IMG/VR virus record: IMGVR_UViG_2585427756_000019
DNA: 14,349 nucleotides
Reading direction: 5' to 3' (one strand)
Origin: a virus
Taxonomy: Duplodnaviria > Heunggongvirae > Uroviricota > Caudoviricetes
The notes below the pieces were generated by a model that ran no database searches, had not been told where the DNA came from, and saw only the letters and a program-made list of their open reading frames with translations. Position numbers and translations under genes: made by a program. This document shows positions 1-14,349 of this stretch, piece by piece (the first letter of the stretch is position 1; the number at the start of each line of letters is the position of its first letter).

Positions 1-176
1 TATACGCGCTGTATCTCTTTCTTCAGCCAGTCATCGCGCTGCGCACGGGCACTGCGTTTATCCGGATGATGTCGCTGTTGCTGACAGTGGTAATACGTTG
101 ACGGGGCAATATGCAGTTCGCTGCATAGCGGTCCGACCCCGTACTGCTCACGCAGCTTATCCAGCAGTGGCATCAT
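1..176 (-). CDS. IS3-family transposase OrfB, N-terminal part only (truncated by window edge)
   Basis: Minus-strand translation from 176 gives [58 protein letters not shown]..., a conserved IS3-family OrfB N-terminus. It is in the -1 frame overlapping the OrfA stop. Confidence 0.8.
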
Positions 177-499
177 TTTTTCCAGAGGCGGTCGAACTCC
201 GCCTTCGCAAAATAAGCGGAAGCCTGGCGAAGGATATCGTTACTGCGGCGCAGTTCACGATTTTCACGCTCCAGCTCTTTCAGACGCTGACGTTCAGCGG
301 TGGTGAGCCCTCCATCACCGCCCCCGGTATCCCGCTCATGCTGGCGAACCCAGACACGCAGAGTCTCCGGCGTACAGCCAATCTTTGGAGCAATGGAACA
401 AATTGTCGCCCATTGTGAGTCATATTCGCCCTGACTTTCCAGAACCATACGGACTGCCCGTTGACGGACTTCAGGGGAAAAACGAGTATTTTTAGTCAT
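173..499 (-). CDS. IS3-family transposase OrfA (helix-turn-helix and leucine-zipper subunit), IS629-like
   Basis: The 108-aa [59 protein letters not shown]... matches my recollection of IS629/IS1203 OrfA. It starts 5 bp inside the inverted repeat after an AGGA ribosome-binding site. Confidence 0.9.
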
Positions 500-553
500 C
501 CTGTTTACCTCTTTCTCAGGAAGTTTAGTCTCCAGGATTCCCGGGGCGGTTCA

Positions 554-1253
554 AACTGTACGTCGACTGATACAGCGGATTAACGAGATAATGATTTACG
601 CTGTAAACACTGGTCTGATTGATGCCAATCCAGCATCGGGGGTTGGGATGGCCTTTGAGAAGCCCAAAAAGCAAAACATGCCAACATTGCGGCCAGAAGA
701 ATTGCCGAAGCTGATGCGTTCTTTAGCTATGTCAAACCTATCTGTTTCGACTCGCTGTCTCATTGAATGGCAACTCCTGACACTTGTGCGTCCTTCTGAA
801 GCCTCTGGTGCTCGTTGGGCAGAGCTCGATCTTGATACAAAGCTCTGGACTATTCCGGCAGAGAGAATGAAAGCCAAACGAGAGCACATTGTTCCTTTAT
901 CACCCCAAGCTTTAGATATTTTGGAAGTGATGAAGCCCATCAGTGCTCATCGTGAACATATTTTTCCTAGCAGAAATGATCCTAAGCAATCAATGAATAG
1001 CCAAACTGCTAATGCAGCTTTAAAACGTATTGGTTTTGGAGGAAAGCTAGTTGCTCATGGCCTCCGATCTATTGCAAGTACAGCAATGAATGAAGCTGGG
1101 TTCAATGCGGATGTTATTGAAGCAGCTTTAGCTCACAGTGATAAAAATGAAGTTCGTAAAGCCTATAATCGTTCAACCTACCTGGTTCAAAGAAAAGATT
1201 TAATGAACTGGTGGGGATTATTTTGTATTAGTTCGAAGAGTGTGAATAAATGA
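554..1253 (+). pseudogene. int: P4-family tyrosine integrase, C-terminal catalytic part only; 5' part separated by the IS insertion
   Basis: The reading frame is open from the first base after the IS repeat (554) to the stop at 1251-1253. It contains the HxxR box (HGLRS) and the C-terminal VRKAYNRSTYLVQRKDLMNWW motif typical of P4-type integrases. The ATG at 591 in the ORF track is only the first in-frame Met. Confidence 0.8.
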
Positions 1254-2887
1254 ATACTTATAAGCAAACCATTAAACAAAAATCAAGATTAAACATATGG
1301 GAAACAGCTATCGCAAGGTTGACAACCCAAGCTGAGAGCTCAAGAATCTTAGAATCAAACTATTTAACAAATCTTATAGATTTTTGTTGGAAAGATACAC
1401 TAAATCAAGTTGCTATATATGATGAGAGCATTGTATTACGCAATGGTTATAATTGGGTGCAAAAAATAAGTGATAGTTATAAACCTAAAGCTGCAAGTGA
1501 ACTAAAGATTGCTTTCTTTTGCGGCCCTGAACCAGAAAATGACTTGGATATACTCTTATCATTAGATGTTAGAATAGAAAATATCTGGGCTTTTGAAATT
1601 GATAACAATTCATATAACACTGCCTTACAAAAAGCTAAAGAGTTCTATCCAAAATTAAAAATATTCCCTGGTTCTATTGGGGAGTTTTTTAAAACCACAC
1701 ATCATACCTTTGATATTATTTACCTTGATTTTACAAGTTCGTTATTGACTAAAAAGAGCCCTCCCCTTGGAGTAATAAACTCTGTATTTGACAATCAGGC
1801 CCTATCAGACTTAGGGGTGTTAATTGTAAACTCTTGCGAACCCGATGCTAACGAAGATAACGCAACATTTCTTGCAAGTTATTTCATGAATCACGAAATA
1901 ATTGAATCATCTGTAATTAACAAAACTAATGATGATGATTATGATGATAACTATGATTATTTTTCACTTTTTATTGAATCCCCCACATCACAAGGATACG
2001 ATGATATAAAGTCATTAGCAAAAGTTATAAAGACTAACATATCCGGAGCGTACTCTGCCTTTTCAACAAGTTATGTAATGCACTATGCTTCAATGATTAG
2101 TCCAACACTTCGTTTTCTACAAAATAACTCATTAAAAAGACAATTATTTAATGATAAAAAAGCTGAAGTAACTGCAACCTTTGCAGAAATTGGATCAACT
2201 GACTTTTTCAAAACATTAATATCAACAGATGGTGAAGCATCGTCCCCCTCCATTTTAGGAAACAGATTCCTAGATAATGAAAGCTACCCATTCTGGAATT
2301 TCATTGATTCATTAAATGGCTCAGGAACAAGTATTTCATCTTACTTTAAGAGCTTTTTCACCACCGCTAAAGAAGGTGTATCCATTTTAAATGCCGTGCA
2401 ATTTCGGGAATCATTTCACTCAATGCTTACAGGAGCTAGAAAGCTATTATCTCAGCGAATGCTCAATGCAATACCCCAAATAATAAAAGCAATTCCTGAT
2501 GCTAGAGGTGGTTTATTCTGTGACATTCCTTTACCCCACCTTTGGTTAGAGGTGGCACTTAATCAGTTAGGTGCACCATACCATGTAAACGTGAAAATGC
2601 ATAATCGATGGAAATATAAAGCAAAAACTCGCACAATGCATACGGACTTATTTGTTTTTGATAGATGCAGAGGTTTTTATGACTCAATGCCTATGATAGA
2701 TCAATACGAAACGATTCTTACTAACATCGAAGAACAAATTTTCGCTAGGTGTTGTATTGATATTATTGGTAAGCAATGTCGTTGGCCAACTCCAAAACTT
2801 TATTTTGGTTCGAACCTAATTGGAATAAACGAGTCTGATTGGTCTGAGTTCGCCGAACTTCGTGAAAGAGAAATTATAAAAGAATAA
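1250..2887 (+). CDS. Hypothetical 545-aa protein of unrecognised family; cargo gene in the int-cos slot of the satellite (candidate anti-phage defence protein)
   Basis: Long uninterrupted ORF whose ATG overlaps the integrase stop (ATGA at 1250-1253). Spot counts give about 22-32% GC, against clearly GC-rich backbone. The N-terminal third shows a beta-alpha alternation with FFCGPEPEND and FDIIYLDF motifs (Rossmann or methyltransferase-like, tentative). There is an acidic DDDYDDNYDYF tract mid-protein. No family assigned. Confidence 0.8.
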   Translation: MNTYKQTIKQKSRLNIWETAIARLTTQAESSRILESNYLTNLIDFCWKDTLNQVAIYDESIVLRNGYNWVQKISDSYKPKAASELKIAFFCGPEPENDLDILLSLDVRIENIWAFEIDNNSYNTALQKAKEFYPKLKIFPGSIGEFFKTTHHTFDIIYLDFTSSLLTKKSPPLGVINSVFDNQALSDLGVLIVNSCEPDANEDNATFLASYFMNHEIIESSVINKTNDDDYDDNYDYFSLFIESPTSQGYDDIKSLAKVIKTNISGAYSAFSTSYVMHYASMISPTLRFLQNNSLKRQLFNDKKAEVTATFAEIGSTDFFKTLISTDGEASSPSILGNRFLDNESYPFWNFIDSLNGSGTSISSYFKSFFTTAKEGVSILNAVQFRESFHSMLTGARKLLSQRMLNAIPQIIKAIPDARGGLFCDIPLPHLWLEVALNQLGAPYHVNVKMHNRWKYKAKTRTMHTDLFVFDRCRGFYDSMPMIDQYETILTNIEEQIFARCCIDIIGKQCRWPTPKLYFGSNLIGINESDWSEFAELREREIIKE

Positions 2888-2902
2888 ATCTCCACGCGCG
2901 CA

Positions 2903-2921
2903 GTGCTTTCCCCGCCTCGCC
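2903..2921. other. cos: P2/P4 cos cohesive-end sequence (19 nt)
   Basis: GTGCTTTCCCCGCCTCGCC is the exact reverse complement of the P2/P4 cohesive end GGCGAGGCGGGGAAAGCAC (recalled). It lies between the cargo gene and psu, as in P4. Confidence 0.8.
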
Positions 2922-2945
2922 CCCCCCCTTTGCGGGGGGGGTTTT
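2920..2945 (+). terminator. G/C homopolymer hairpin (C9-tttgc-G8) followed by TTTT; possible terminator for the cargo gene and/or part of the cos packaging region
   Basis: Run of 9 C at 2920-2928, loop TTTGC, run of 8 G at 2934-2941, then TTTT at 2942-2945. Confidence 0.4.
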
Positions 2946-3023
2946 AATGCAGTTGCACTGACACGCTCAGACCGCGCCGGGAATGGCGCGGTTTGCAGAA
3001 AATGAGGCAGGGAAACGCATGCA

Positions 3024-3056
3024 AAGCCATGCACCTTATCGATGCATGGCTTTTTT
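3024..3056. terminator. Stem-loop with flanking T/A tracts between the convergent cargo gene and psu; candidate bidirectional terminator
   Basis: AAGCCATGCA (3024-3033), 9-nt loop, TGCATGGCTT (3043-3052), followed by a T run to 3056 on the plus strand. On the minus strand it is followed by TTTG. Confidence 0.45.
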
Positions 3057-3086
3057 CAGTAAAAACGGGCGGATTTTCGGGGAATT

Positions 3087-3659
3087 TTACACTGACTGAC
3101 GTGATGCAAGTTGCGCACTTTTACGCGAAAAAATCATGTTCTGCGCAGGGGTGAATTTTTCACGGCTGTCATCCACCGAAGCCACGTCAGGCCTGAATCC
3201 GATGGTCGTTAAAATGTCGCTATCCTGTGCGGAATAATTAATTTTTTCACCCTTCGCAAGCCAGGACAGAAGGGCTTCACGCAGGGCATCTGTGGCACGC
3301 TGTATGGCACAGTTTCGGGCAATGGCCGTCAGCTCACTGTAGCCCATCAGCTCCGGTGCCAGTGCGGCCGCCAGTACTGTGCCGTGCTGCTGCATAAAAT
3401 CATTCAGCCGGTCGCGGATGCTGATGTGCTGAACGGCTTCATGCGAACGAATATAACGACCGGCGGCCTGATTCACCTGCCATTTTCTGACTTCGATAAT
3501 ATTGCGTAATTCGTCCAGGCGGCTGACGTTTCTGCCTTCTCCTGACAGAAGCCGCAGATATTCCTGTTCGGCCGCTGCCAGCTCATTTTTGCGTTGCAGC
3601 CATGCTGCTTTGTTATTCTGACAGGTGTCAAAGGCCTGCTGTAAGGCTGTGCTTTCCAT
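3087..3659 (-). CDS. psu: Polarity suppression protein Psu (capsid decoration / Rho antagonist), P4-like
   Basis: 190-aa ORF beginning MESTALQQAFDTCQNNKAAWLQRKNELAAAEQEYLRLL..., matching P4 Psu in length and recalled sequence. It is last in the sid-delta-psu operon. Confidence 0.9.
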   Translation of the reverse strand: MESTALQQAFDTCQNNKAAWLQRKNELAAAEQEYLRLLSGEGRNVSRLDELRNIIEVRKWQVNQAAGRYIRSHEAVQHISIRDRLNDFMQQHGTVLAAALAPELMGYSELTAIARNCAIQRATDALREALLSWLAKGEKINYSAQDSDILTTIGFRPDVASVDDSREKFTPAQNMIFSRKSAQLASRQSV

Positions 3660-3732
3660 CGTTATCTCTTTCTCATCATGCTGAAGAATAAAAATACGGT
3701 GTGCGGCGACGGCCGGGGTTAACCGGCAGCCC

Positions 3733-4233
3733 TCATTCCAGACGCAGCGAATATGATTGTGTTTTTAACCGTACTGGCGGCAGTTCCTGTTTTTCATGCA
3801 GGCGTTCTGCCAGTTCGTCCGGCGTGACCGGGCGGACAATGAAGCGGGTGATGGTCTGAAGCGTTTTAAACACCAGACCACAGTCCGGATCCGTGCACAC
3901 ATAAAAACGCTCGGTGACTTCCTGAGACAGACGCCGCGATGTTCTTGACAGCGCAAGGCCTTTACATCTCCGACAACAATATCCGGTAACAAGCATTCTT
4001 TTCGGGCGTTTCATACTGCCGGAGGCTGACGTCAGTGAATCGCGGTATCTCTGTTTGCCTGAAATGTATTCCATTCCTGAATCTTTACTGTCAGAGAAAA
4101 AGCTTTCACTCGCTTCAAATGTCGCAGAGCAATAAATATTCCGGCACTGTGCAATCATTATCTTGGTGCCATCGTCCATGAAATGTGCGCGACGGGTGTG
4201 AGCAACATGTCCACACGACGGGCAGTAAATCAT
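3733..4233 (-). CDS. delta: Delta late-gene transcriptional activator (tandem Ogr-like zinc-finger domains), P4-like
   Basis: 166 aa with two Cys-rich Ogr-type modules (MIYCPSCGHVAHTRRAH...QCRNIYCSATF and ...YCCRRCKG...YVCTDPDCGLVF). Its start overlaps the sid stop (ATGA at 4230-4233). Confidence 0.9.
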   Translation of the reverse strand: MIYCPSCGHVAHTRRAHFMDDGTKIMIAQCRNIYCSATFEASESFFSDSKDSGMEYISGKQRYRDSLTSASGSMKRPKRMLVTGYCCRRCKGLALSRTSRRLSQEVTERFYVCTDPDCGLVFKTLQTITRFIVRPVTPDELAERLHEKQELPPVRLKTQSYSLRLE

Positions 4234-4964
4234 GACAGCAGTCCTCTGGCCTTAAGCTCTGCTCCCTGCTGGTCTATTTTGTCCTGCCACACCTTGCGCT
4301 GTGCCGGTGTGCCTGCCACCTCATAATCCATGTGCGGGAGTGTTGCCGCTGACAGTCCGGTCAGCCGGAGAACCGGCTCGCCGGTGAGGCTGATTTGCAT
4401 CTGTTTAATTTTCTGTTCCAGCGATGATTTCACCTGCTGCATGACAGCTTTATCGGGTGCGACGTAGCCCTGATGGCCGGTGGTGTTGGCGAGCGGATTT
4501 TCCTGTACCAGGATACTCAGATGCATTGCCCGGACAAGCGCCTCACAGGTTTCATTCAGGGCGTGTTCCAGCTCATGCTCTGCATACAGACTCAGAAGGT
4601 GATGATGTGCCTTCCGGTAGGCGGTGGCCGTGCTGTCACACGCCCCTTTCAGGCGTTCACGTTCGAAATTCAGCACCACGGCCAGATTGTCATATTCCTG
4701 TACCAGCTCCCGGCGTGCCACGCGCTCAATGTGGCGCTGTTTCAGCTCGTCGCTCAGGACACCACCGGCTGCACGAAAGGCCGTGCGCCAGTCGTCAGCG
4801 TCGTTTCCGTTGGCCTGCGTCAGCGCATTTTTTTCCTGCTCTGCCCGTTCAATGGCCGTGATGGTCTCATCCATCAGGCGGGCGTTCTCAAGATGAGCGG
4901 CTCTGGCCTTTTCCAGTTGTGCCAGTGCGGGTTGCAGATATTCAGGGATGGTGTTGTCAGACAT
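4230..4964 (-). CDS. sid: Sid external scaffold / capsid size determination protein, P4-like
   Basis: Start assigned to the second Met (MSDNTIPEYLQPALAQLEKARAAH...), which gives 244 aa as in P4 Sid and is preceded by GAGGAG at 7-nt spacing. The upstream ATG at 4982 overlaps that ribosome-binding site. Confidence 0.9.
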   Translation of the reverse strand: MSDNTIPEYLQPALAQLEKARAAHLENARLMDETITAIERAEQEKNALTQANGNDADDWRTAFRAAGGVLSDELKQRHIERVARRELVQEYDNLAVVLNFERERLKGACDSTATAYRKAHHHLLSLYAEHELEHALNETCEALVRAMHLSILVQENPLANTTGHQGYVAPDKAVMQQVKSSLEQKIKQMQISLTGEPVLRLTGLSAATLPHMDYEVAGTPAQRKVWQDKIDQQGAELKARGLLS

Positions 4965-5036
4965 TTTCCGGCTCCTCGTCACTTCAGGTTAAGAAAATTG
5001 TGACGTACACCGGACAACAACACGACGCATTGCAGA

Positions 5037-5054
5037 TGTGCCAGCCCTGACACA
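5037..5054 (-). promoter_or_regulatory. Psid-type late promoter activator site: TGT-N12-ACA dyad (Ogr/Delta binding element)
   Basis: TGTgccagccctgacACA has perfect TGT-N12-ACA spacing. On the minus strand a CACAAT -10-like hexamer lies about 46 nt downstream of the dyad centre, putting the dyad near -55 of a predicted start about 27 nt upstream of the sid ATG. Confidence 0.55.
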
Positions 5055-5133
5055 GGAGACTCATCCTCACACCGGCAAGCCAGGAAAAGGTCGCAGGAAA
5101 AACCGGCTTACTGTTTGTTTTTTTATATTTTAC

Positions 5134-5237
5134 TGTTCACCTCTGTTCACCATAAGAAAAAAGATAAGTAATACAGTAAGTTAAAGGGTGAACAATCGCA
5201 GTAATGACTGTTCACCGTCTGTTCACCACTGTTCACC
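5134..5237. repeat. ori: ori-like iteron cluster: six copies of the octamer TGTTCACC (five direct, one inverted), candidate alpha-protein binding sites
   Basis: TGTTCACC at 5134-5141, 5144-5151, 5209-5216, 5220-5227 and 5230-5237; GGTGAACA (inverted) at 5187-5194. This matches the recalled P4 ori with six type I repeats, located between Psid and the rightward operon. Confidence 0.7.
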
Positions 5238-5516
5238 CGTTGATGGGCTTTTTGTGCTGTTTATTACTGTTTATTTTTATTAATTCGCCGGGAATGAATA
5301 AGAAAAAACGATTTGTATTTCACTATAAAAATTACGAATTGCTTTAAGTGGCTTTAAATGACTTTAAGTGGAGATGAACAAAAAACACACAAGCATTGTA
5401 AGGCTGCCGGAACAAATCCCCCCTGTTGCGTCTGCCAAAAATATTCACAAAATAAAGCGCTACCCGAAGCCGGACGGACTTATCCGGTGCTGTATGGACA
5501 TTAACGAGGTAGCCCG

Positions 5517-5783
5517 ATGCAAGCTGTTTTTTCTTCCCCGTCTCCCGCCCCTGTGACGCCACTGATGCCGCTGCCGGACATCACGCAGGAACGTTTTTTA
5601 CGTCTGCCGGAAGTAATGCACCTGTGCGGCCTGTCACGCTCGACCATCTATGAACTCATCCGTAAGGGGGAATTTCCGCCGCAGGTGAGTCTTGGCGGTA
5701 AAAATGTGGCCTGGCTGCACTCTGAAGTCACCGCATGGATGGCCGGGCGCATTGCCGGACGCAAACGGGGGTACGACGCATGA
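5517..5783 (+). CDS. vis: AlpA/Vis-family small DNA-binding protein (excisionase / transcriptional regulator), P4 orf88-like
   Basis: 88 aa with a GAGG ribosome-binding site 7 nt upstream. The core [47 protein letters not shown] is characteristic of the AlpA helix-turn-helix family. Confidence 0.8.
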
Positions 5784-5875
5784 TGATGCCCGCTCTGCAA
5801 AAACTCCCTTTTTCTGGCTTGCCTTTTTTCGGCATTTGCGGATATAGTTTTCCCGCTGCCGCAAAATCGGCAGCC

Positions 5876-6171
5876 GGGCGTGGAAACCCGAGCAATCTAA
5901 CGGCGACATATGACGCGCCATGCGTCTTTTTTTGTGTCGCAATCAACGCCACAGAGCGCCAGATTATGGTGTGGTGTGTGGTCAGTCGAGCAGATGGCAC
6001 TCCGTGCATCCTGCCCGCGTCCGCTCATTATGCCGCAGGGTCAATGGTAGCTCAGGCGGGGCAGCCTCCGGGCTGGCCGGTATCCGTTAGAGCCGGTATT
6101 TCCACCCCCGTCTGGGCTATCGCCATCGAGCGTGGAAACTCCGGCGATAGCGTAACCTGCTATCTAACGGA
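5876..6171 (+). ncRNA. cI: Putative P4-type RNA immunity leader (cI-like RNA region with seqA / seqB / seqC complementary elements); boundaries approximate
   Basis: Two similar segments containing CGTGGAAAC...ATCTAACGG (5876-5903 and 6129-6171) flank a segment CCGTTAGAGCCGGTATTTCCACCC (6085-6108) that is largely their reverse complement. This recalls the seqA-seqB-seqC arrangement of the P4 immunity region downstream of vis. Confidence 0.35.
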
Positions 6172-6181
6172 GGCTGCCATC

Positions 6182-6379
6182 ATGGCTACAACCCTTACCC
6201 CTTCACACCCTGAATTTGTCTTTGTGTTTGCGGCTGTCCGTCGCGCAGACCGTCATCCCCGTATCTGCATGCTTCGCACCGTCGCCGGTGATGAACGCAG
6301 TGCCCGCCGTTCCCTTGTCCGTGACTATGTGCTCTCCCTTGCTGCCCGTCTGCCGGTGGTGGAGGTGTCCCGTGCGTAA
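6182..6379 (+). CDS. Small hypothetical protein of the satellite left operon (position of P4 kil/eta); 65 aa
   Basis: ATG preceded by GGAGG at about 8 nt. The stop overlaps the start of the next ORF. The ORF-track 214-aa call (5735-6379) is an over-extension through GC-rich sequence. Confidence 0.4.
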
Positions 6380-6659
6380 TAAAAAAGCCCCTCAGACCGT
6401 CTCAGCACGTCATGACGCCCGTGAACACCTCAGCATTGAGGCTTACCATAAGCTCAACCGCGCCAGCGCCGTATCCCAGTTTGTTGGGGGTGATTTGATT
6501 CACCGTGAACTCTCCGGCCTGCATCAGCTCTACATTCCGCATATTTTCAGCTACCTGAATGAAGATATTGATTTTGTGCTGAATGAGCTGAAAGCCAAAG
6601 GCCTGTGCCGCGATTTTCTCGCCCAGCAGAAAGACCGGGGAGACAGGACGCATGTTTGA
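6372..6659 (+). CDS. Epsilon-like small protein (P4 helper-derepression protein position); 95 aa from a GTG start
   Basis: GTG start 4-5 nt after GGAGGTG. The 95-aa product ([28 protein letters not shown]...) agrees in length and position with my recollection of P4 epsilon. Its stop overlaps the next start. Confidence 0.5.
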
Positions 6660-7107
6660 TTTTCCCCAGCCCGGTGAGATTTACCGTTCTGCCGGTTTTC
6701 CCGATGTGGCCGTGGTCGGCATTCTGGAAGACGGTATTCCGTGGGAAATGCCGTACCGCTGCCCGGACATTGTCTGGAACCCGTACCGCCGTAAATTCAG
6801 TATCCTTGTGCGTATCCTCGCTGACGGGCGCACCACAGACATCCCGCTGGGGCGTTTTCTGCGGGAATTTACCTGTGACCGTCCTGACCTGTTTAAACGC
6901 AGCCCCGTAAACCGGCATGCGGTACTGAAAGAAATGGCCGGAGACCCGGAATTACAGAAATGGCGGGAGAAATATCTGGATATTTACCCGCAGGACACTG
7001 TTCCGGTCAGCCGGGCGGCACCGGTGGCGCGGGAATGGCGGGAAATTCCCCGCACGGAGCCTGACCCGGAAATCACCCCGGATAACAGTTACCGCAATTA
7101 TCTGTAA
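6652..7107 (+). CDS. Hypothetical protein, P4 orf151-like
   Basis: 151 aa, exactly the recalled P4 orf151 length. Start overlaps the upstream stop (operon coupling). Confidence 0.7.
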   Translation: MFDFPQPGEIYRSAGFPDVAVVGILEDGIPWEMPYRCPDIVWNPYRRKFSILVRILADGRTTDIPLGRFLREFTCDRPDLFKRSPVNRHAVLKEMAGDPELQKWREKYLDIYPQDTVPVSRAAPVAREWREIPRTEPDPEITPDNSYRNYL

Positions 7108-7242
7108 TTAAAAAACGACACCCGAAAAATTAAATGTGCGTATTCGCGCAGGGATACGCACGTCTTCAGGAGACGCAGATATGCCTTATCAGTTAATGCA
7201 ACCGGCACGGAATGCAGTCATCTGTCACAGGGAGGAAAACAA

Positions 7243-7563
7243 ATGAAAACACCCTTACCGCCCGTCTTACGCGCTGCCCTTTACCGTCGCGCTGTCGCCT
7301 GTGCCTGGCTGACCGTGTGCGAACGTCAGCACCGCTACCCGCATCTCACCCTTGAGTCACTGGAAGCGGCCATCGCCGCTGAGCTGGAAGGCTTTTATCT
7401 GCGCCAGCACGGTGAGGAAAAAGGGCGTCAGATAGCCTGTGCCCTGCTGGAAGATTTAATGGAATCCGGCCCCCTGAAGGCCGCGCCGTCGCTGTCCTTT
7501 CTCGGGCTGGTTGTGATGGATGAACTCTGTGCCCGTCACATAAAAGCGCCGGTACTGCACTGA
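7243..7563 (+). CDS. Hypothetical protein immediately upstream of alpha (P4 orf106-like)
   Basis: 106-aa ORF with GGGAGG ribosome-binding site about 8 nt upstream. Same strand and operon as alpha. Confidence 0.65.
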
Positions 7564-7577
7564 AGGAGAACAACACC

Positions 7578-9911
7578 ATGAAAATGAACGTAACCGCCAC
7601 CGTCAGCCATGCGCTCGGCCACTGGCCGCGTATTCTCCCGGCGCTGGGGATTCAGGTGCTGAAAAACCGTCATCAGCCCTGTCCGGTCTGTGGCGGGAGT
7701 GACCGCTTCCGTTTTGATGACAGGGAGGGGCGCGGCACCTGGTACTGCAATCAGTGTGGTGCCGGTGACGGCCTGAAACTGGTTGAAAAGGTGTTTGGTG
7801 TCTCCCCGTCCGACGCGGCCGCAAAGGTGGCTGCCGTGACCGGCAGCCTGCCCCCGGCTGACCCGGCAGTGACGGCTGCCGCCGGTGCTGAAACAGACGC
7901 TGCCCGGAAGAACGCCGCCGCACTGGCACAAACCCTGATGGCGAAAACCCGTCCCGGAACCGGTAACGCCTACCTGACCCGCAAGGGCTTTCCCGGCCGG
8001 GAATGCCGGATGCTGACCGGCACACACAGAGCCGGTGGCGTGAGCTGGCGTGCCGGTGACCTTGTGGTGCCACTGTATGACGACAGCGGCGAACTGGTTA
8101 ACCTTCAGTTAATCAGTGCTGACGGCCGTAAGCGCACCCTGAAAGGCGGACAGGTCAGGGGCACCTGTCACACCCTTGAAGGACAGAATCAGGCCGGAAA
8201 ACGTCTGTGGATAGCGGAGGGATACGCGACCGCACTTACCGTGCATCACCTGACCGGTGAAACGGTGATGGTGGCGCTTTCTTCCGTGAACCTCCTTTCT
8301 CTGGCCAGCCTTGCCCGGCAGAAGCATCCGGCCTGTCAGATTGTCCTTGCCGCAGACCGTGACCTCAGCGGTGACGGCCAGAAAAAAGCCGCCGCAGCCG
8401 CAGATGCGTGTGAAGGTGTTGTTGCCCTGCCGCCGGTCTTCGGTGACTGGAATGATGCCTTCACGCAGTACGGCGGGGAGGCCACCCGTAAGGCCATTTA
8501 CGATGCCATCCGGCCACCGGCTGAAAGCCCGTTCGACACCATGAGTGAAGCGGAGTTTTCCGCCATGAGTACCAGCGAAAAGGCCATGCGTATCTATGAG
8601 CATTACGGCGAGGCGCTCGCGGTCGATGCCAACGGCCAGCTTCTGTCCCGCTATGAAAATGGTGTCTGGAAGGTGCTGCCGCCACAGGACTTTGCCCGGA
8701 ATGTGGCCGGGCTGTTTCAGCGGCTGCGCGCGCCGTTCTCCTCCGGGAAGGTGGCCTCCGTGGTGGACACCCTGAAGCTGATTATTCCGCAGCAGGAAGC
8801 CCCCTCCCGCTGCCTGATTGGCTTTCGTAACGGCGTGCTCGACACGCAGAACGGCACGTTCCACCCGCACAGTCCGTCACACTGGATGCGTACCCTGTGC
8901 GATGTGGATTTCACCCCGCCGGTGGAAGGGGAAACGCTGGAAACCCACGCCCACGCGTTCTGGCGCTGGCTTGACCGTGCCGCCGGTGGCCGTGCGGAAA
9001 AACGCGACGTGATTCTGGCCGCACTGTTTATGGTGCTGGCAAACCGCTATGACTGGCAGCTCTTTCTGGAGGTGACCGGTCCCGGCGGCAGCGGCAAAAG
9101 TATCATGGCCGAAATAGCCACCCTGCTGGCCGGGGAGGATAACGCCACGTCGGCCACCATTGAGACGCTGGAATCCCCGCGTGAACGTGCCGCGTTAACT
9201 GGCTTCTCACTGATACGCCTGCCGGACCAGGAAAAATGGAGCGGCGACGGAGCCGGACTCAAGGCCATCACCGGCGGCGATGCAGTGTCCGTTGACCCGA
9301 AATACCGGGATGCGTACTCCACGCATATCCCGGCGGTGATTCTGGCCGTGAACAATAACCCGATGCGCTTCACCGACCGCAGCGGCGGCGTGTCACGCCG
9401 GCGGGTGATTATTCACTTCCCGGAACAGATAGCCCCGCAGGAGCGCGACCCGCAGCTTAAGGACAAAATCACCCGCGAGCTGGCGGTCATCGTGCGTCAC
9501 CTGATGCAGAAGTTCAGCGACCCGATGCTCGCCCGGTCACTGCTTCAGTCCCAGCAGAACTCAGACGAGGCACTGAACATCAAACGGGATGCCGACCCGA
9601 CGTTTGATTTTATCGGCTATCTGGAAACCCTGCCGCAGACCAGCGGCATGTATATGGGGAACGCCAGTATCATCCCGCGTAATTACCGTAAATACCTCTA
9701 TCACGCCTATCTGGCCTACATGGAGGCAAACGGCTACCGGAATGTACTCAGTCTGAAAATGTTCGGGCTGGGGCTGCCGGTGATGCTGAAGGAATACGGA
9801 CTGAATTACGAGAAGCGCCATACCAAACAGGGGATACAGACCAACCTGACACTGAAAGAGGAAAGCTACGGCGACTGGCTGCCAAAATGTGACGCCCCTG
9901 CAACAACCTGA
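7578..9911 (+). CDS. alpha: Alpha protein: bifunctional primase / SF3 helicase with C-terminal origin-binding domain, P4-like
   Basis: 777 aa, the P4 alpha length. N-terminal zinc-binding motif CPVCGGSDRFRFDDREGRGTWYCNQCG, Walker A GPGGSGKS at LEVTGPGGSGKSIMAEIA, AAGGAG ribosome-binding site upstream. Confidence 0.95.
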   Translation: MKMNVTATVSHALGHWPRILPALGIQVLKNRHQPCPVCGGSDRFRFDDREGRGTWYCNQCGAGDGLKLVEKVFGVSPSDAAAKVAAVTGSLPPADPAVTAAAGAETDAARKNAAALAQTLMAKTRPGTGNAYLTRKGFPGRECRMLTGTHRAGGVSWRAGDLVVPLYDDSGELVNLQLISADGRKRTLKGGQVRGTCHTLEGQNQAGKRLWIAEGYATALTVHHLTGETVMVALSSVNLLSLASLARQKHPACQIVLAADRDLSGDGQKKAAAAADACEGVVALPPVFGDWNDAFTQYGGEATRKAIYDAIRPPAESPFDTMSEAEFSAMSTSEKAMRIYEHYGEALAVDANGQLLSRYENGVWKVLPPQDFARNVAGLFQRLRAPFSSGKVASVVDTLKLIIPQQEAPSRCLIGFRNGVLDTQNGTFHPHSPSHWMRTLCDVDFTPPVEGETLETHAHAFWRWLDRAAGGRAEKRDVILAALFMVLANRYDWQLFLEVTGPGGSGKSIMAEIATLLAGEDNATSATIETLESPRERAALTGFSLIRLPDQEKWSGDGAGLKAITGGDAVSVDPKYRDAYSTHIPAVILAVNNNPMRFTDRSGGVSRRRVIIHFPEQIAPQERDPQLKDKITRELAVIVRHLMQKFSDPMLARSLLQSQQNSDEALNIKRDADPTFDFIGYLETLPQTSGMYMGNASIIPRNYRKYLYHAYLAYMEANGYRNVLSLKMFGLGLPVMLKEYGLNYEKRHTKQGIQTNLTLKEESYGDWLPKCDAPATT

Positions 9912-10570: not shown

Positions 10571-13500
10571 TCAGAACGACCAGTTCACACCAGCTACCGC
10601 GTTCCACGGGGATTCCACACCGGCACTATGGCTATACCCCACCCCAAGATGCCCGCTTAACGTACTGCTGAATGAGGCTTTAATACCTGCCTGGTATATT
10701 CCACGTCTGCCCGACAAATAATTGACGAAATTACCGTCACTATTCACTTTCACCCGGTTATCATCGACAAATTCTTTGCGCACAGCCGCCTTCAGCCACG
10801 GCTCAACTTCCATACCGTTCCCCAGACGCATGTTGTAACTCAGCGTTGCGCCCAGTTCACGATATATACTGCGGGTATCGACTGATTTCGATTTCATGCC
10901 ATTGGATAAATGATATTCGGGGTTATCAGCGGTGAACCCCGTTAACGATGCATACGGCGTCAGGTTCCAGTTACCATCGGTAAATCGCATCCCGGTTTCA
11001 ATGTGACCGCCCAGCCCGTTGCTGTGGTAACTGCCATTGGCGGCTCCACCGCTGCTCATTTTACCTGCTACGTTACTTTTAAAACGGTTCAGCTTCACGA
11101 CACCGTCCAGATAGAAACCACTTTCATGTTCCCAACTGGCATAGCCGCCCAGAGAATAACTGCCCACACTGCCATGTCCTCCGCGATCAAAACCGATATG
11201 TGAATGGGAATAGCCCATAAAAGCGCCTAGCGTGGTAATTCCTTCAGGAATATCATTACGGCTGTCGATCCCCACTGTCATTCCGGTCAGCGTCTGCTCA
11301 AACCCGGCACCCGCATCGGTGGTGACATTATTACGGGTGTTATACGTCGCCCCCCAGACATTATTGTTGTGTGGACTCGCTTTCATTATGTTCAACCGCT
11401 CGCGAATACTGTTTAGCTCAGCATCAAATACCAACGGTAATGTTGCTGCCATATTGAGTACGGCTGCCGTAGAAGGCGTAATGCGTTTCTCCGGAACGGG
11501 TGTCGGCGTTGGATCGGGAGTAGGGTCTGGTTTTGGATTTGGGTCTGGCTTTGGATCGGGTTTTGGGTCTGGCTTTGGATTTGGGATGGGGTCCGGGTTG
11601 GGTTTGACATCATTGGTCAGGTTCCAGTTGCTGTTGCCGTCACTTTTCAGGACATACTCATAGGTCCCAAGATCAACGAAACCGCCGGTATTGCCCAGCG
11701 TAAACGAAGCATCCCCTCCCCCTGTTTTCACCAGCGTCATCGCGTCGTCAGACTGTGGGCTGACGCCGGTATCCTGAACAAAGATTTTAAAATTACCAGT
11801 GGCGTTGTTGTTGACGACCAGTTGATCGCCCCGGGAGCCTGCAACGTTGGTATGCAGGTAGAAATTACCGCTACCGGAAAGTTCATTGGTTGTCAGCGTA
11901 TTGTAGATACCGTTAGTTGTGGCAGGCGCTGCTGTTTGTGCTGACAAATAAACATCACCGTCGTTGAGTAGCAAACTGTTTACTCTATATTCGCAGTTGC
12001 TGGTACCTGCACAGGAATTATTGCTGTTAAGCCAGACACTGCCCCGGCTGGCAGCCGTCAGGTCGGCAAGCGTGGTATCGACGCCATTTCCCAGAGTCAA
12101 TGTCGCGCTATCGGTAATCCGGACCGCCCCTTCGAGTTTAACTGGCGTAACATTATCCCGTGGCGTCATTAACGACAGGCTTCCTGTCGCGCCACTGACC
12201 GATGCATCCGCCAGCGTACCTGCGTAGACGATTGCCGTACCGCCAGCGACCTGGAGATCTTCTGCCCGGGCCAGAGCCTGAAACTCATCTTTTGACCGCC
12301 CAAGGGTATATTGCCCGCCAGAGTTAACCTTTGTGGCGGAGTCCTGACCCAGGTTTTGCATTGCCCCACCCTTGCCAACCGTGGAGTCGCGAGCTTCGGT
12401 ACCTGCTAATACCAATAAATTACCGCCATTTTCCAGCAACATATTGGTCGCTAAATTGCCGGAAATGGAAAAAGTACCGTACTGGTGAGTACCGCTGATT
12501 TCAATACCGTTAGCCGTGCTCGTCTGGAGAGCGGCACCGCTGTTCTGGACGATATCTGTCGCTTTGCCATTATCGTTGACTGTCAGCGTACCGCCTTCAT
12601 TGATCTTTGTTTTTATTGCCTCTCCGTTAGCTGAAACTGTTTGTATTCCGCCGTCGTTAATTGTTGTCTCATTCGCCACACCCTCGACAATTTGTTCACC
12701 GCCGGTGAGCGTCGTGCCTGTCGCAGTGGCTTTTGTTTTGACGATCTCCCGTCCGCCCATATTGACCTGTGTTTTGTCAGAAGAGGTGTCTGACTCCACG
12801 GTTAACACGCCGCCATTTGCCAGCAGGATATTGTTCGCCGCACCCTGCTCGATGCTGAACGCGACGCCATCCGCGCGTGTTCCTGTGACCCGCGTCGCCC
12901 TGGTGGTTGCAACCAAAGCGCCCTGGCTACTCTGCTGTATCCCCGTTGCGCTGCCTTTCTCCCGCACATCGAGTGTGCCGCCGTCATTAAGCACCGAGTT
13001 TTCAGCCAGACCGCCCTCATTAACTACCTGTGAACCCCCATTAATAATGGAACCTTCCGCTGTCCCGTTTGCCATAATTTGTTGTAGGCCAGAGACGATA
13101 TCGGTATTGATTGCCTTACCATAATTCTGAACGGTTTGCGTGCCACCATTGATGTGTGTTTTCTCTGTTGACCCACCATCAACAATTTGTTCACCACTTT
13201 CGATATTTGCTTCAGTGGCTAAACCATATACCGTTTGCTTGCCACCTTTGATATTTGCTTTATCAGAAGTGGCACTGGCATATATTGTTTGGGTGCCAGC
13301 ACTATTGAGTACAGTGCCAACATCTTTTCCATAAACATCCATTTTGCCGTTGGCATTAATAATCGTGTCAACTGCGCGGGAACCAGTGACGACTGTTAAT
13401 GAGCCAGCGTTTTCCAGCACTACATTTTTAGCTTCTGAATTCCTGATGTAGAAAGCATCACCATAACTGTTGGTTCCTTCGATAAGTGTTCCGGAGGTCG

Positions 13501-13718
13501 TGGAAGCAATTAATGCGCCGCCGGATTGTTGCTCAACATGCTTAGCCTCACCACCGTCCTGAACCTCCAGAACGCCGCCATTATTAAGTCTGGTGCTATC
13601 TGTTTTAGCCTCCTTCTGGACAATCAGCTTACCGCCAGTATCAATGGTAGTATTTTTCGCCGAGGTTTTAGCCACTACCGTCAGTTCGCCGGTATTTTCC
13701 AGCACAACATAATTAGCC
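10571..13718 (-). pseudogene. AIDA-I/Ag43-type autotransporter adhesin (beta-helical passenger, Pro-rich linker, C-terminal beta-barrel); 5' end removed by the IS10 insertion
   Basis: C-terminus ...NAVAGVNWSF is an autotransporter barrel signature. Linker PNPDPIPNPKPDPKPDPKPDPNPKPDPTPDPTPTPVP. The passenger has Gly-rich beta-helix repeats. The apparent N-terminus MCIHLNLMIFTKIIRGF is encoded by the IS10 end and there is no signal peptide, so the ORF is a fusion artefact. Confidence 0.85.
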
Positions 13719-14349
13719 CTGATGAATCCCCTAATGATTTTGGTAAAAATCATTAAGTTAAGGTGGATACACATCTTGTCATATGATCAAATGGTTTCGC
13801 GAAAAATCAATAATCAGACAACAAGATGTGCGAACTCGATATTTTACACGACTCTCTTTACCAATTCTGCCCCGAATTACACTTAAAACGACTCAACAGC
13901 TTAACGTTGGCTTGCCACGCCTTACTTGACTGTAAAACTCTCACTCTTACCGAACTTGGCCGTAACCTGCCAACCAAAGCGAGAACAAAACATAACATCA
14001 AACGAATCGACCGATTGTTAGGTAATCGTCACCTCCACAAAGAGCGACTCGCTGTATACCGTTGGCATGCTAGCTTTATCTGTTCGGGCAATACGATGCC
14101 CATTGTACTTGTTGACTGGTCTGATATTCGTGAGCAAAAACGACTTATGGTATTGCGAGCTTCAGTCGCACTACACGGTCGTTCTGTTACTCTTTATGAG
14201 AAAGCGTTCCCGCTTTCAGAGCAATGTTCAAAGAAAGCTCATGACCAATTTCTAGCCGACCTTGCGAGCATTCTACCGAGTAACACCACACCGCTCATTG
14301 TCAGTGATGCTGGCTTTAAAGTGCCATGGTATAAATCCGTTGAGAAGCT
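13719..14349 (+). mobile_element. IS10 (IS4 family; Tn10-type), outside end plus 5' half of the transposase, continues past window end
   Basis: From 13719 the sequence reads CTGATGAATCCCCTAATGATTTTGGTAAAAATCATTAAG..., the IS10 terminal sequence as I recall it. Confidence 0.9.
13826..14349 (+). CDS. IS10 transposase, N-terminal part (open to window end)
   Basis: ATG at 13826 translates to MCELDILHDSLYQFCPELHLKRLNSLTLACHALLDCKTLTLTELGRNLPTKARTK..., the IS10 transposase N-terminus. Not listed in the ORF track because there is no stop in the window. Confidence 0.9.
   Translation, partial: MCELDILHDSLYQFCPELHLKRLNSLTLACHALLDCKTLTLTELGRNLPTKARTKHNIKRIDRLLGNRHLHKERLAVYRWHASFICSGNTMPIVLVDWSDIREQKRLMVLRASVALHGRSVTLYEKAFPLSEQCSKKAHDQFLADLASILPSNTTPLIVSDAGFKVPWYKSVEK

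Follow-up and report, generated by a model that had tools for sequence, protein, structure and literature searches.

The closest described counterpart of the locus analysed here is the defence hotspot of P4-like phage satellites, a slot between the integrase gene int and psu, next to the cohesive-end site cos (PMC9122126; PMC13586616). We studied a 14,349-nucleotide stretch of IMG/VR virus record IMGVR_UViG_2585427756_000019 (hereafter the window, whose positions are used throughout), which is a P4-like phage satellite of the ssrA type, in E. coli. It has the backbone of the described elements, the same int-psu slot by cos and an AT-rich single-gene cargo; as in those elements, the variable sequence stops a few nucleotides from cos, and sister elements carry many alternative cargos. 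That P4 hotspots swap their cargo is well established, and exchange through the cos end plus a second homologous event was proposed by Rousset et al. 2022 (PMC9122126). What follows is a correction and a refinement: the cassette includes the catalytic C-terminus of the integrase. In their searchable text the two studies delimit the hotspot by gene, from int to psu, and do not use the words 'breakpoint' and 'mosaic' (PMC9122126; PMC13586616), whereas the left edge in the window lies inside the int open reading frame (ORF), upstream of the catalytic Tyr codon. The window also differs from the described P4 hotspots in its Int, which is of the ssrA/CP4-57 type, just 37% identical to P4 Int at the amino acid (aa) level, and disrupted by an IS3-family insertion sequence (IS).

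Phage P4 (NC_001609) has the same gene order, its int being followed by cII-beta-gop and cos. In the window psu, delta, sid and alpha are all present in the order of P4, and aa identity to the P4 proteins is 99.5% for Psu, 97.6% for Delta, 98.0% for Sid and 98.7% for Alpha. P4 int likewise ends in an AT-rich extension (last 40 codons: GC at third codon positions, GC3, 0.30; GC at first and second positions 0.19) adjoining a 36%-GC accessory block. P4 differs in its gop/beta/cII cargo, in its integration site and in its 439-aa int, which has no GC3 drop ahead of the last 40 codons.

Layout of the int-to-cos hotspot

We give a probability of about 0.75 to the reading that this is the accessory (defence) hotspot between int and cos of an ssrA-integrated P4-like satellite, and that an exchangeable unit reaching from ~1131-1156 to ~2895 moves by recombination. 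The features concerned are the following.

554-1130, plus strand: int body fragment, codons ~170-361, of an ssrA-type (CP4-57-like) tyrosine integrase (Pfam)
1056-1067, plus strand: HGLR motif, int body
1128-1139, plus strand: LAH histidine motif, mostly inside the int tail
1131-1253, plus strand: putative cargo-linked int tail (signature sites and the GC change point at 1139)
1152-1184, plus strand: VRKAYNRSTYL, int tail region
1164-1166, plus strand: catalytic Tyr codon (in AYNR), int tail
1203-1214, plus strand: MNWW, int tail
1209-1217, plus strand: WWG, int tail
1218-1250, plus strand: hypervariable C-terminal extension of int, after WWG
1235-1253, plus strand: Shine-Dalgarno (SD)-like GAAGAG (1235-1240) and ATGA stop/start overlap (1250-1253), within the int tail
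1250-2887, plus strand: cargo gene, 545 aa, GC 0.34, the lone gene in the hotspot
2888-2895, no strand: right edge of the variable block, where the homology of different-cargo loci resumes
2896-2941, no strand: conserved GCGCGCA, then the cos 19-mer (match to the P4 genome ends), then a G+C hairpin with a T run (terminator-like match)

The int fragment matches Pfam Phage_integrase (PF00589, E = 2.5e-31) and has all the C-terminal residues of a tyrosine recombinase: HxxR, His and Tyr. The codon at 1164-1166 is the one that we take, by analogy with lambda Int and XerC, to encode the catalytic Tyr. The motifs HGLR, VRKAYNRSTYL and MNWW, which the initial annotation placed in the AT-rich end of int, are all encoded in the frame claimed; HGLR belongs to the int body, and most of LAH and the Tyr codon to the tail.

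Ten cargo types are found in this int-cos slot, including SIR2, NACHT, AAA+DUF4435, ABC-3C and a restriction enzyme. The slot lies between int and cos/psu, and a near-identical element, L002 of E. coli NCTC9066 (int body 99.6-100%, psu side 98%), has an unrelated gene in it. That gene (L002:4691-6376) encodes an uncharacterised 561-aa protein with no family match, whose first ~200 residues resemble multiple membrane helices. It was considered as a homologue of the window cargo and rejected (blastp E > 7).

Left edge of the exchanged block

As uninterrupted reference we used L001, the same element with int intact, which matches the window at every position of 554-2922 (L001 position 4001 is window 554, and any coordinate below 554 refers to L001, counted in window-equivalent terms). 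From the int start codon to 1096, four sites separate L001 from L002 (~99.6% identity), and the window has one mismatch to L002 over 554-1096 and a single one over 841-1096. Dense differences begin at 1097, and identity is back to 0.96-1.00 (~98% overall) from ~2898. By region, L001-L002 identity is 1.00 in the int body, 0.58 in the int tail and 0.98 on the psu side of cos, the cargos being unrelated. The identity drop-off that the initial annotation had proposed to map between ints with different cargos lies at 1097-1112 in this pair. Since 841-1096 is near-identical in an element with another cargo, that stretch did not arrive with the cargo of the window.

A Klebsiella aerogenes P4-like element, L008, carries a homologous cargo (85% aa identity). 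In the triplet L001/L002/L008 the maximum chi-square breakpoint falls between 1107 and 1112 (chi2 = 184, permutation p < 0.0005). At eight sites L001 shares its base with L008 and with none of the eight other-cargo E. coli ints; every one of these sites is within 1157-1239. At 41 sites L001 sides with the E. coli majority and not with L008, and 40 of them are found at 1130 or earlier. Together the two sets of sites put the junction in the window int at 1131-1156, in agreement with the GC change point at 1139. Judged from these site patterns, the putative cargo-linked int tail starts at ~1131-1156, ~100-120 nt from the int end, and includes the catalytic Tyr codon. The proposal that the 3' end of int is exchanged together with the cargo, as a single block with edges in int and near cos, is therefore supported at both edges by L001, L002 and L008, with its breakpoint moved to 1131-1156 and its int portion shortened from ~400 bp to ~100-120 nt. 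A breakpoint near 841 does not agree with the single mismatch to L002 over 841-1096, nor with the lack of any cargo-specific site before 1157.

L001 and L008 are 0.84 identical in the int body, 0.90 in the int tail, 0.83 (nt) in the cargo and 0.69 on the psu side of cos. In the int body other E. coli ints resemble L008 more (0.87-0.90) than L001 does (0.84), and the nearest relatives of L001 are L002, L003 and L015; in the int tail L001 and L008 are by far each other's closest relatives. Given these discordant relationships, body and tail do not share one history in L001, in L008 or in both.

The pattern extends beyond the triplet. Mean pairwise identity among nine E. coli int alleles is 0.872 over 48-887, 0.835 over 888-1096, 0.792 over 1097-1157, 0.726 over 1158-1217 and 0.272 over 1218-1253, and most of the tail divergence sits at 1158-1253. 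Several same-cargo pairs from different genera are more alike in the tail than in the body, for example 0.92 vs 0.74 for Tatumella/E. coli, 0.92 vs 0.76 for Erwinia/E. coli and 0.86 vs 0.76 for another such pair. Same- and different-cargo pairs, which are not independent of one another, differ in tail identity (Mann-Whitney p = 0.036) and show no significant difference in body identity. Two Pantoea ints (L050/L067) are 99.4% identical over window-equivalent 585-1106 and then fall to 0.72. Other high-identity tracts stop at 409, 553, 628, 694, 746, 832 and 865, and with tract ends so scattered int is mosaic throughout.

The Pantoea drop at 1106 is in the same place as the L001/L002 discontinuity, a hint that crossovers may favour the conserved stretch coding for NEAGFN. 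Four ints from Mixta, Winslowiella and Pantoea (L055, L060, L061, L069) have the common tail WWGTFTYK(S/N). The DNA downstream of int is unusually GC-rich in L060, L061 and L069 (0.44-0.53 vs the usual ~0.33) and is 0.37 in L055; the hotspots of these ints may be empty or otherwise filled.

Right edge and cos

The P2/P4 cos 19-mer is exact at 2903-2921, as the reverse complement of GGCGAGGCGGGGAAAGCAC (P4 left end), and a G+C hairpin at 2921-2941 plus TTTT, terminator-like, adjoins it. The window and 12 loci, together 13 sequences with differing cargos, share one right junction: homology restarts at (c)gcgcgca, 7-8 nt before the 19-mer. In the window the cargo stop codon is followed by just 7 nt (2888-2894) before the conserved cos flank. 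The position agrees with the boundary near cos shown in Rousset et al. 2022 (PMC9122126).

Over 554-3100 the window and L001 differ at only four positions, 2923, 2927, 2934 and 2939, all in the post-cos hairpin. These changes convert cgcccgc/gcggggcgg, the form present in the nine other loci whose cos 19-mer is identical, to a C8/G8 stem. Either they compensate one another in a terminator-like hairpin, or they stem from a sequencing artefact at homopolymers.

Base composition and the synonymous-site step

Overall GC is 0.477 at 554-840, 0.395 at 841-1253 (0.418 at 841-1096 and 0.357 at 1097-1253), 0.340 in the cargo (1254-2887) and 0.537 at 2888-7500. Likelihood change-point analysis of 554-3400 favours three segments by the Bayesian information criterion, with breaks at 1139 and 2889 and GC of 0.45, 0.338 and 0.547; position 841 is never selected, even with up to five segments. 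An AT-rich block ending before the cos 19-mer (2903-2921) was thus correctly recognised by the initial annotation, which had it begin at ~841 instead of 1139.

The softer AT enrichment ahead of that break is carried by synonymous sites. In the window int the best GC3 change is at codon 298 (window 942; permutation p = 0.011), and a split at 888 gives 0.418 vs 0.248 (Fisher p = 0.0015); codon positions 1 and 2 show no GC fall matching the step. We compared 78 intact int homologues: nine came from E. coli elements, each with a different cargo, three from same-cargo loci of other genera, and the rest from one genome per species across Enterobacterales. GC3 drops in 77 of the 78 irrespective of cargo (mean 0.479 to 0.326), with a family change point at codon 280 (window 888). 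The softer enrichment from ~888 characterises the synonymous sites of the entire clade of ssrA P4-type ints and, being common to ints with many cargos, can neither mark nor date the arrival of the window's cargo. The argument that a GC fall near 841 marks a co-acquired int end fails for the same reason. The step is missing in four related integrases that do not adjoin a P4 hotspot (a Klebsiella phage, phi467 IntA, a Vibrio phage and a Salmonella island). Their last-third GC3 is 0.29-0.53, with one terminal bin <0.33, compared with 0.17-0.30 in hotspot ints; two of the four also have AT-rich DNA downstream.

The cargo protein

The AlphaFold model of the cargo is confident (predicted local distance difference test 88, predicted template modelling score 0.92) and contains a Rossmann-type core with a class I S-adenosylmethionine (SAM)-methyltransferase fold at about residues 85-220, flanked by domains without a structural match. 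The nearest known folds are class I SAM-dependent RNA methyltransferases (Trm1, RsmD-like, TYW2 and cap guanine-N7 methyltransferases). Searches found no match in Pfam or NCBIfam (including methyltransferase models) and none in PADLOC at E <= 0.01. A profile search against PDB sequences gave nothing under E = 0.098, with TrmR/YrrM appearing weakly at E = 0.5, and a viral fold library gave weak matches only, mostly methyltransferase domains. The invariant GPEPxND, E116 and D160 of the family would be compatible with cofactor binding, though atypical.

All but one of 180 cargo homologues are unnamed; they occur across Proteobacteria and also in Methanosarcina, Paenibacillus and myxobacteria. The cargo is the lone gene in the P4 hotspot of four further genera, Klebsiella, Rahnella, Pectobacterium and Photorhabdus. 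Homologues are also found as lone genes in a P2-like phage, where tail-fibre assembly genes and sheath genes flank the locus; in a Salmonella integrase-relaxase island; in a cassette-like array of Vibrio parahaemolyticus; and, next to HNH and KAP-NTPase genes, in the accessory (moron) region of an Aeromonas lambdoid prophage. Their presence in unrelated accessory slots indicates that the family moves between types of mobile element. Distant homologues (39-48% aa identity) include L018:5001-6659 (P2-like), L022:5001-6620 (Vibrio) and L105:7001-8704 (Aeromonas).

The protein, WP_021572920, is entered as a 'hypothetical' hotspot system in a table of Rousset et al. 2022 (PMC9122126), and its accession has no mention in searchable paper text. 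According to Moura de Sousa et al. 2026 (PMC13586616), six of eight randomly picked unknown P4 hotspot loci protected against phages; the cargo is absent from the new defence systems named there. Neither a PADLOC model nor a published phenotype assigns the cargo to a known anti-phage system. The cargo is probably a stand-alone SAM-methyltransferase-fold protein, and from its context our best guess is a putative antiviral role. A family so widespread and unannotated in phage and satellite accessory loci is a reasonable phage-defence candidate.

Explanations for the mosaic

In the reading that we favour, the exchangeable unit would hold the last ~100-120 nt of int (with the Tyr codon and the C-terminal extension), the ribosome-binding site of the cargo and the 545-aa cargo gene, and would pass between P4-like backbones via recombination. 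A right crossover anywhere in the conserved cos/psu flank would leave a sharp visible edge 7-8 nt from the cos 19-mer. A left crossover within the homologous and diverged int 3' end would leave an edge staggered between lineages; such an edge is seen at 1096-1112 in two independent pairs, and BLAST alignments among E. coli int alleles generally stop at window-equivalent 1129-1217. The resulting int would be a working chimera in relatives, taking the Arg/Lys/His-x-x-Arg residues from the body and the last His and the Tyr from the tail. Surveys that delimit cargo 'between int and psu' overlook the int C-terminus with the catalytic Tyr as part of the variable unit, which matters for int phylogenies and for cassette engineering.

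Several points weigh against this reading. Homologous recombination as the route of exchange is inferred from sequence patterns, and the discontinuity at 1097-1112 may be the crossover of L002's own swap; any of L001, L002 and L008 may be the recombinant lineage. Some same-cargo pairs are not more alike in the tail than in the body (L063/L064, 0.73 vs 0.84). With 12 hand-picked loci and one genome per species, the sample is small and phylogenetically non-independent, which makes the p-values indicative only. As to the defence role, the cargo is connected with defence neither by experiments nor by databases, and its SAM-binding motif is atypical, FCGPEPEND instead of GxGxG, with no Pfam methyltransferase match.

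Among the alternatives the one that survives best concerns the clade-wide step. Low GC3 from codon 280 would here be the footprint of many past swaps, whose left crossovers scattered in the 3' third of int and repeatedly imported AT-rich DNA. Synonymous as well as overall allele identity declines steadily toward the hotspot, and the scattered tract ends listed above, together with those at 1096 and 1106, would be the crossover ends in various pairs. The four related integrases away from the hotspot lack the step, including the two with AT-rich downstream DNA, and P4's own int is AT-rich only over its last 40 codons. However, these outgroup controls number only four, and the step is missing in some Serratia and Mixta members. 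It is also abrupt at one codon position across genera, which a single ancestral event would fit equally, with selection as another option. We rate the footprint as possible, at somewhat less than even odds.

We are similarly tentative about a broader proposal, in which each hotspot cassette carries its own integrase C-terminus (the Tyr and a cassette-specific post-WWG extension), every swap rebuilds a chimeric int, and the GC3 step is the long-term footprint; and in which, separately, the cargo is a novel antiviral system of one gene, with an RNA-methyltransferase-like fold, that P4, P2, lambdoid prophages and cassette arrays have in common.

It is unlikely that the element in the window is not mosaic at all, int and cargo having co-diverged vertically as one unit, with recombination confined to relatives such as L002. 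In that case the AT-rich tail would reflect ancestral composition or selection, for instance on an AT-rich regulatory or H-NS-bound region or on the translation initiation region of the cargo. The broadly similar L001-L008 identities in body, tail and cargo given above fit this picture, and the tail holds the SD and start codon of the cargo, where selection is to be expected. Against it stand the closer relation of the L008 body to other E. coli ints than to L001, the mutual closeness of the L001 and L008 tails, and the psu side, where L001-L008 identity is 0.69 vs 0.98 for L001-L002.

Least probable is a single recombination at ~841 that brought the last ~400 bp of int with the window's cargo: the GC fall across 841, the GC3 step at 888-942 and a drop in the L003 comparison from ~0.98 to 0.85-0.92 near 746-830 (some crossovers do reach that far) speak for it, but for the most recent exchange it is contradicted by the sharing of 841-1096 with L002 and by signature sites that start only at 1157, and the GC3 step in 77 of 78 homologues and the change-point analysis, which never chose 841, count against it too.

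Int-cargo overlap and expression

The ATGA overlap at 1250-1253, reported by the initial annotation, is confirmed in the sequence, and GAAGAG lies 9 nt before the cargo ATG. The overlap is kept in the E. coli, Klebsiella and Photorhabdus copies of the window-type cargo; it is present in the loci L008 and L092 and missing from L010 and L012. In the Rahnella and Pectobacterium copies the cargo starts 11-17 nt past the int stop with its own SD, and the unrelated cargo of L002 likewise overlaps int by ATGA. Translational coupling, as first suggested, stays plausible and is not required; it is possible, not conserved. Int and cargo are likely co-transcribed in intact elements. In the window, where int is broken by IS3, coupling from full-length int cannot operate. 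A promoter scan of 450-3100 gave 7 sites vs 7.1 expected from shuffles, which is chance level and supports no promoter claim for the cargo.

IS3 insertion and satellite backbone

The remaining features of the window are the following.

1-553, minus strand: end of an IS3-family insertion sequence, inverted repeat ending at 553; truncates int
173-499, minus strand: InsE-like helix-turn-helix (HTH) transposase ORF within the IS3 end (Pfam HTH_Tnp_1 match)
3087-3659, minus strand: psu (Pfam Psu match)
3733-4233, minus strand: delta (Pfam Ogr_Delta match)
4230-4982, minus strand: sid-like gene (aa identity to P4 Sid)
7578-9911, plus strand: alpha-type primase (Pfam primase domain)

The IS3 end is 99.8% identical to thousands of annotated E. 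coli IS3-family copies. It cuts int at 553/554 and leaves codons ~170-401 (554-1253). No attR (a copy of the ssrA 3' end of at least 16 nt) was found within the window; with int cut by IS3 as well, the window does not hold a functional integrase with att sites. Excision by its own integrase should be impossible for this copy, whose cargo is intact. Related elements sit at ssrA: five complete E. coli genomes, L001 being from one of them, have the same element directly downstream of ssrA with an uninterrupted 401-aa int. On the right side of the hotspot psu-delta-sid (3087-4982) forms the conserved backbone.

Despite the IS3 in int, the window cargo is 100% identical to the allele of intact elements. 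IS1 or IS5 insertions occur elsewhere in the same int in other strains (L007, L013, L014), and in two the whole satellite is lost. BLAST alignment ends at 884 (H40) and 1081 (H39) were considered as early breakpoints and rejected, as they reflect IS5/IS1 insertions and deletion of the remaining satellite. Downstream of alpha lies an AIDA/Ag43-type autotransporter of 1067 aa (10571-13774, minus strand) with AIDA repeats, Pertactin and Autotransporter beta-domain; its position is that of the second, less populated P4 accessory locus, from the primase to attR.

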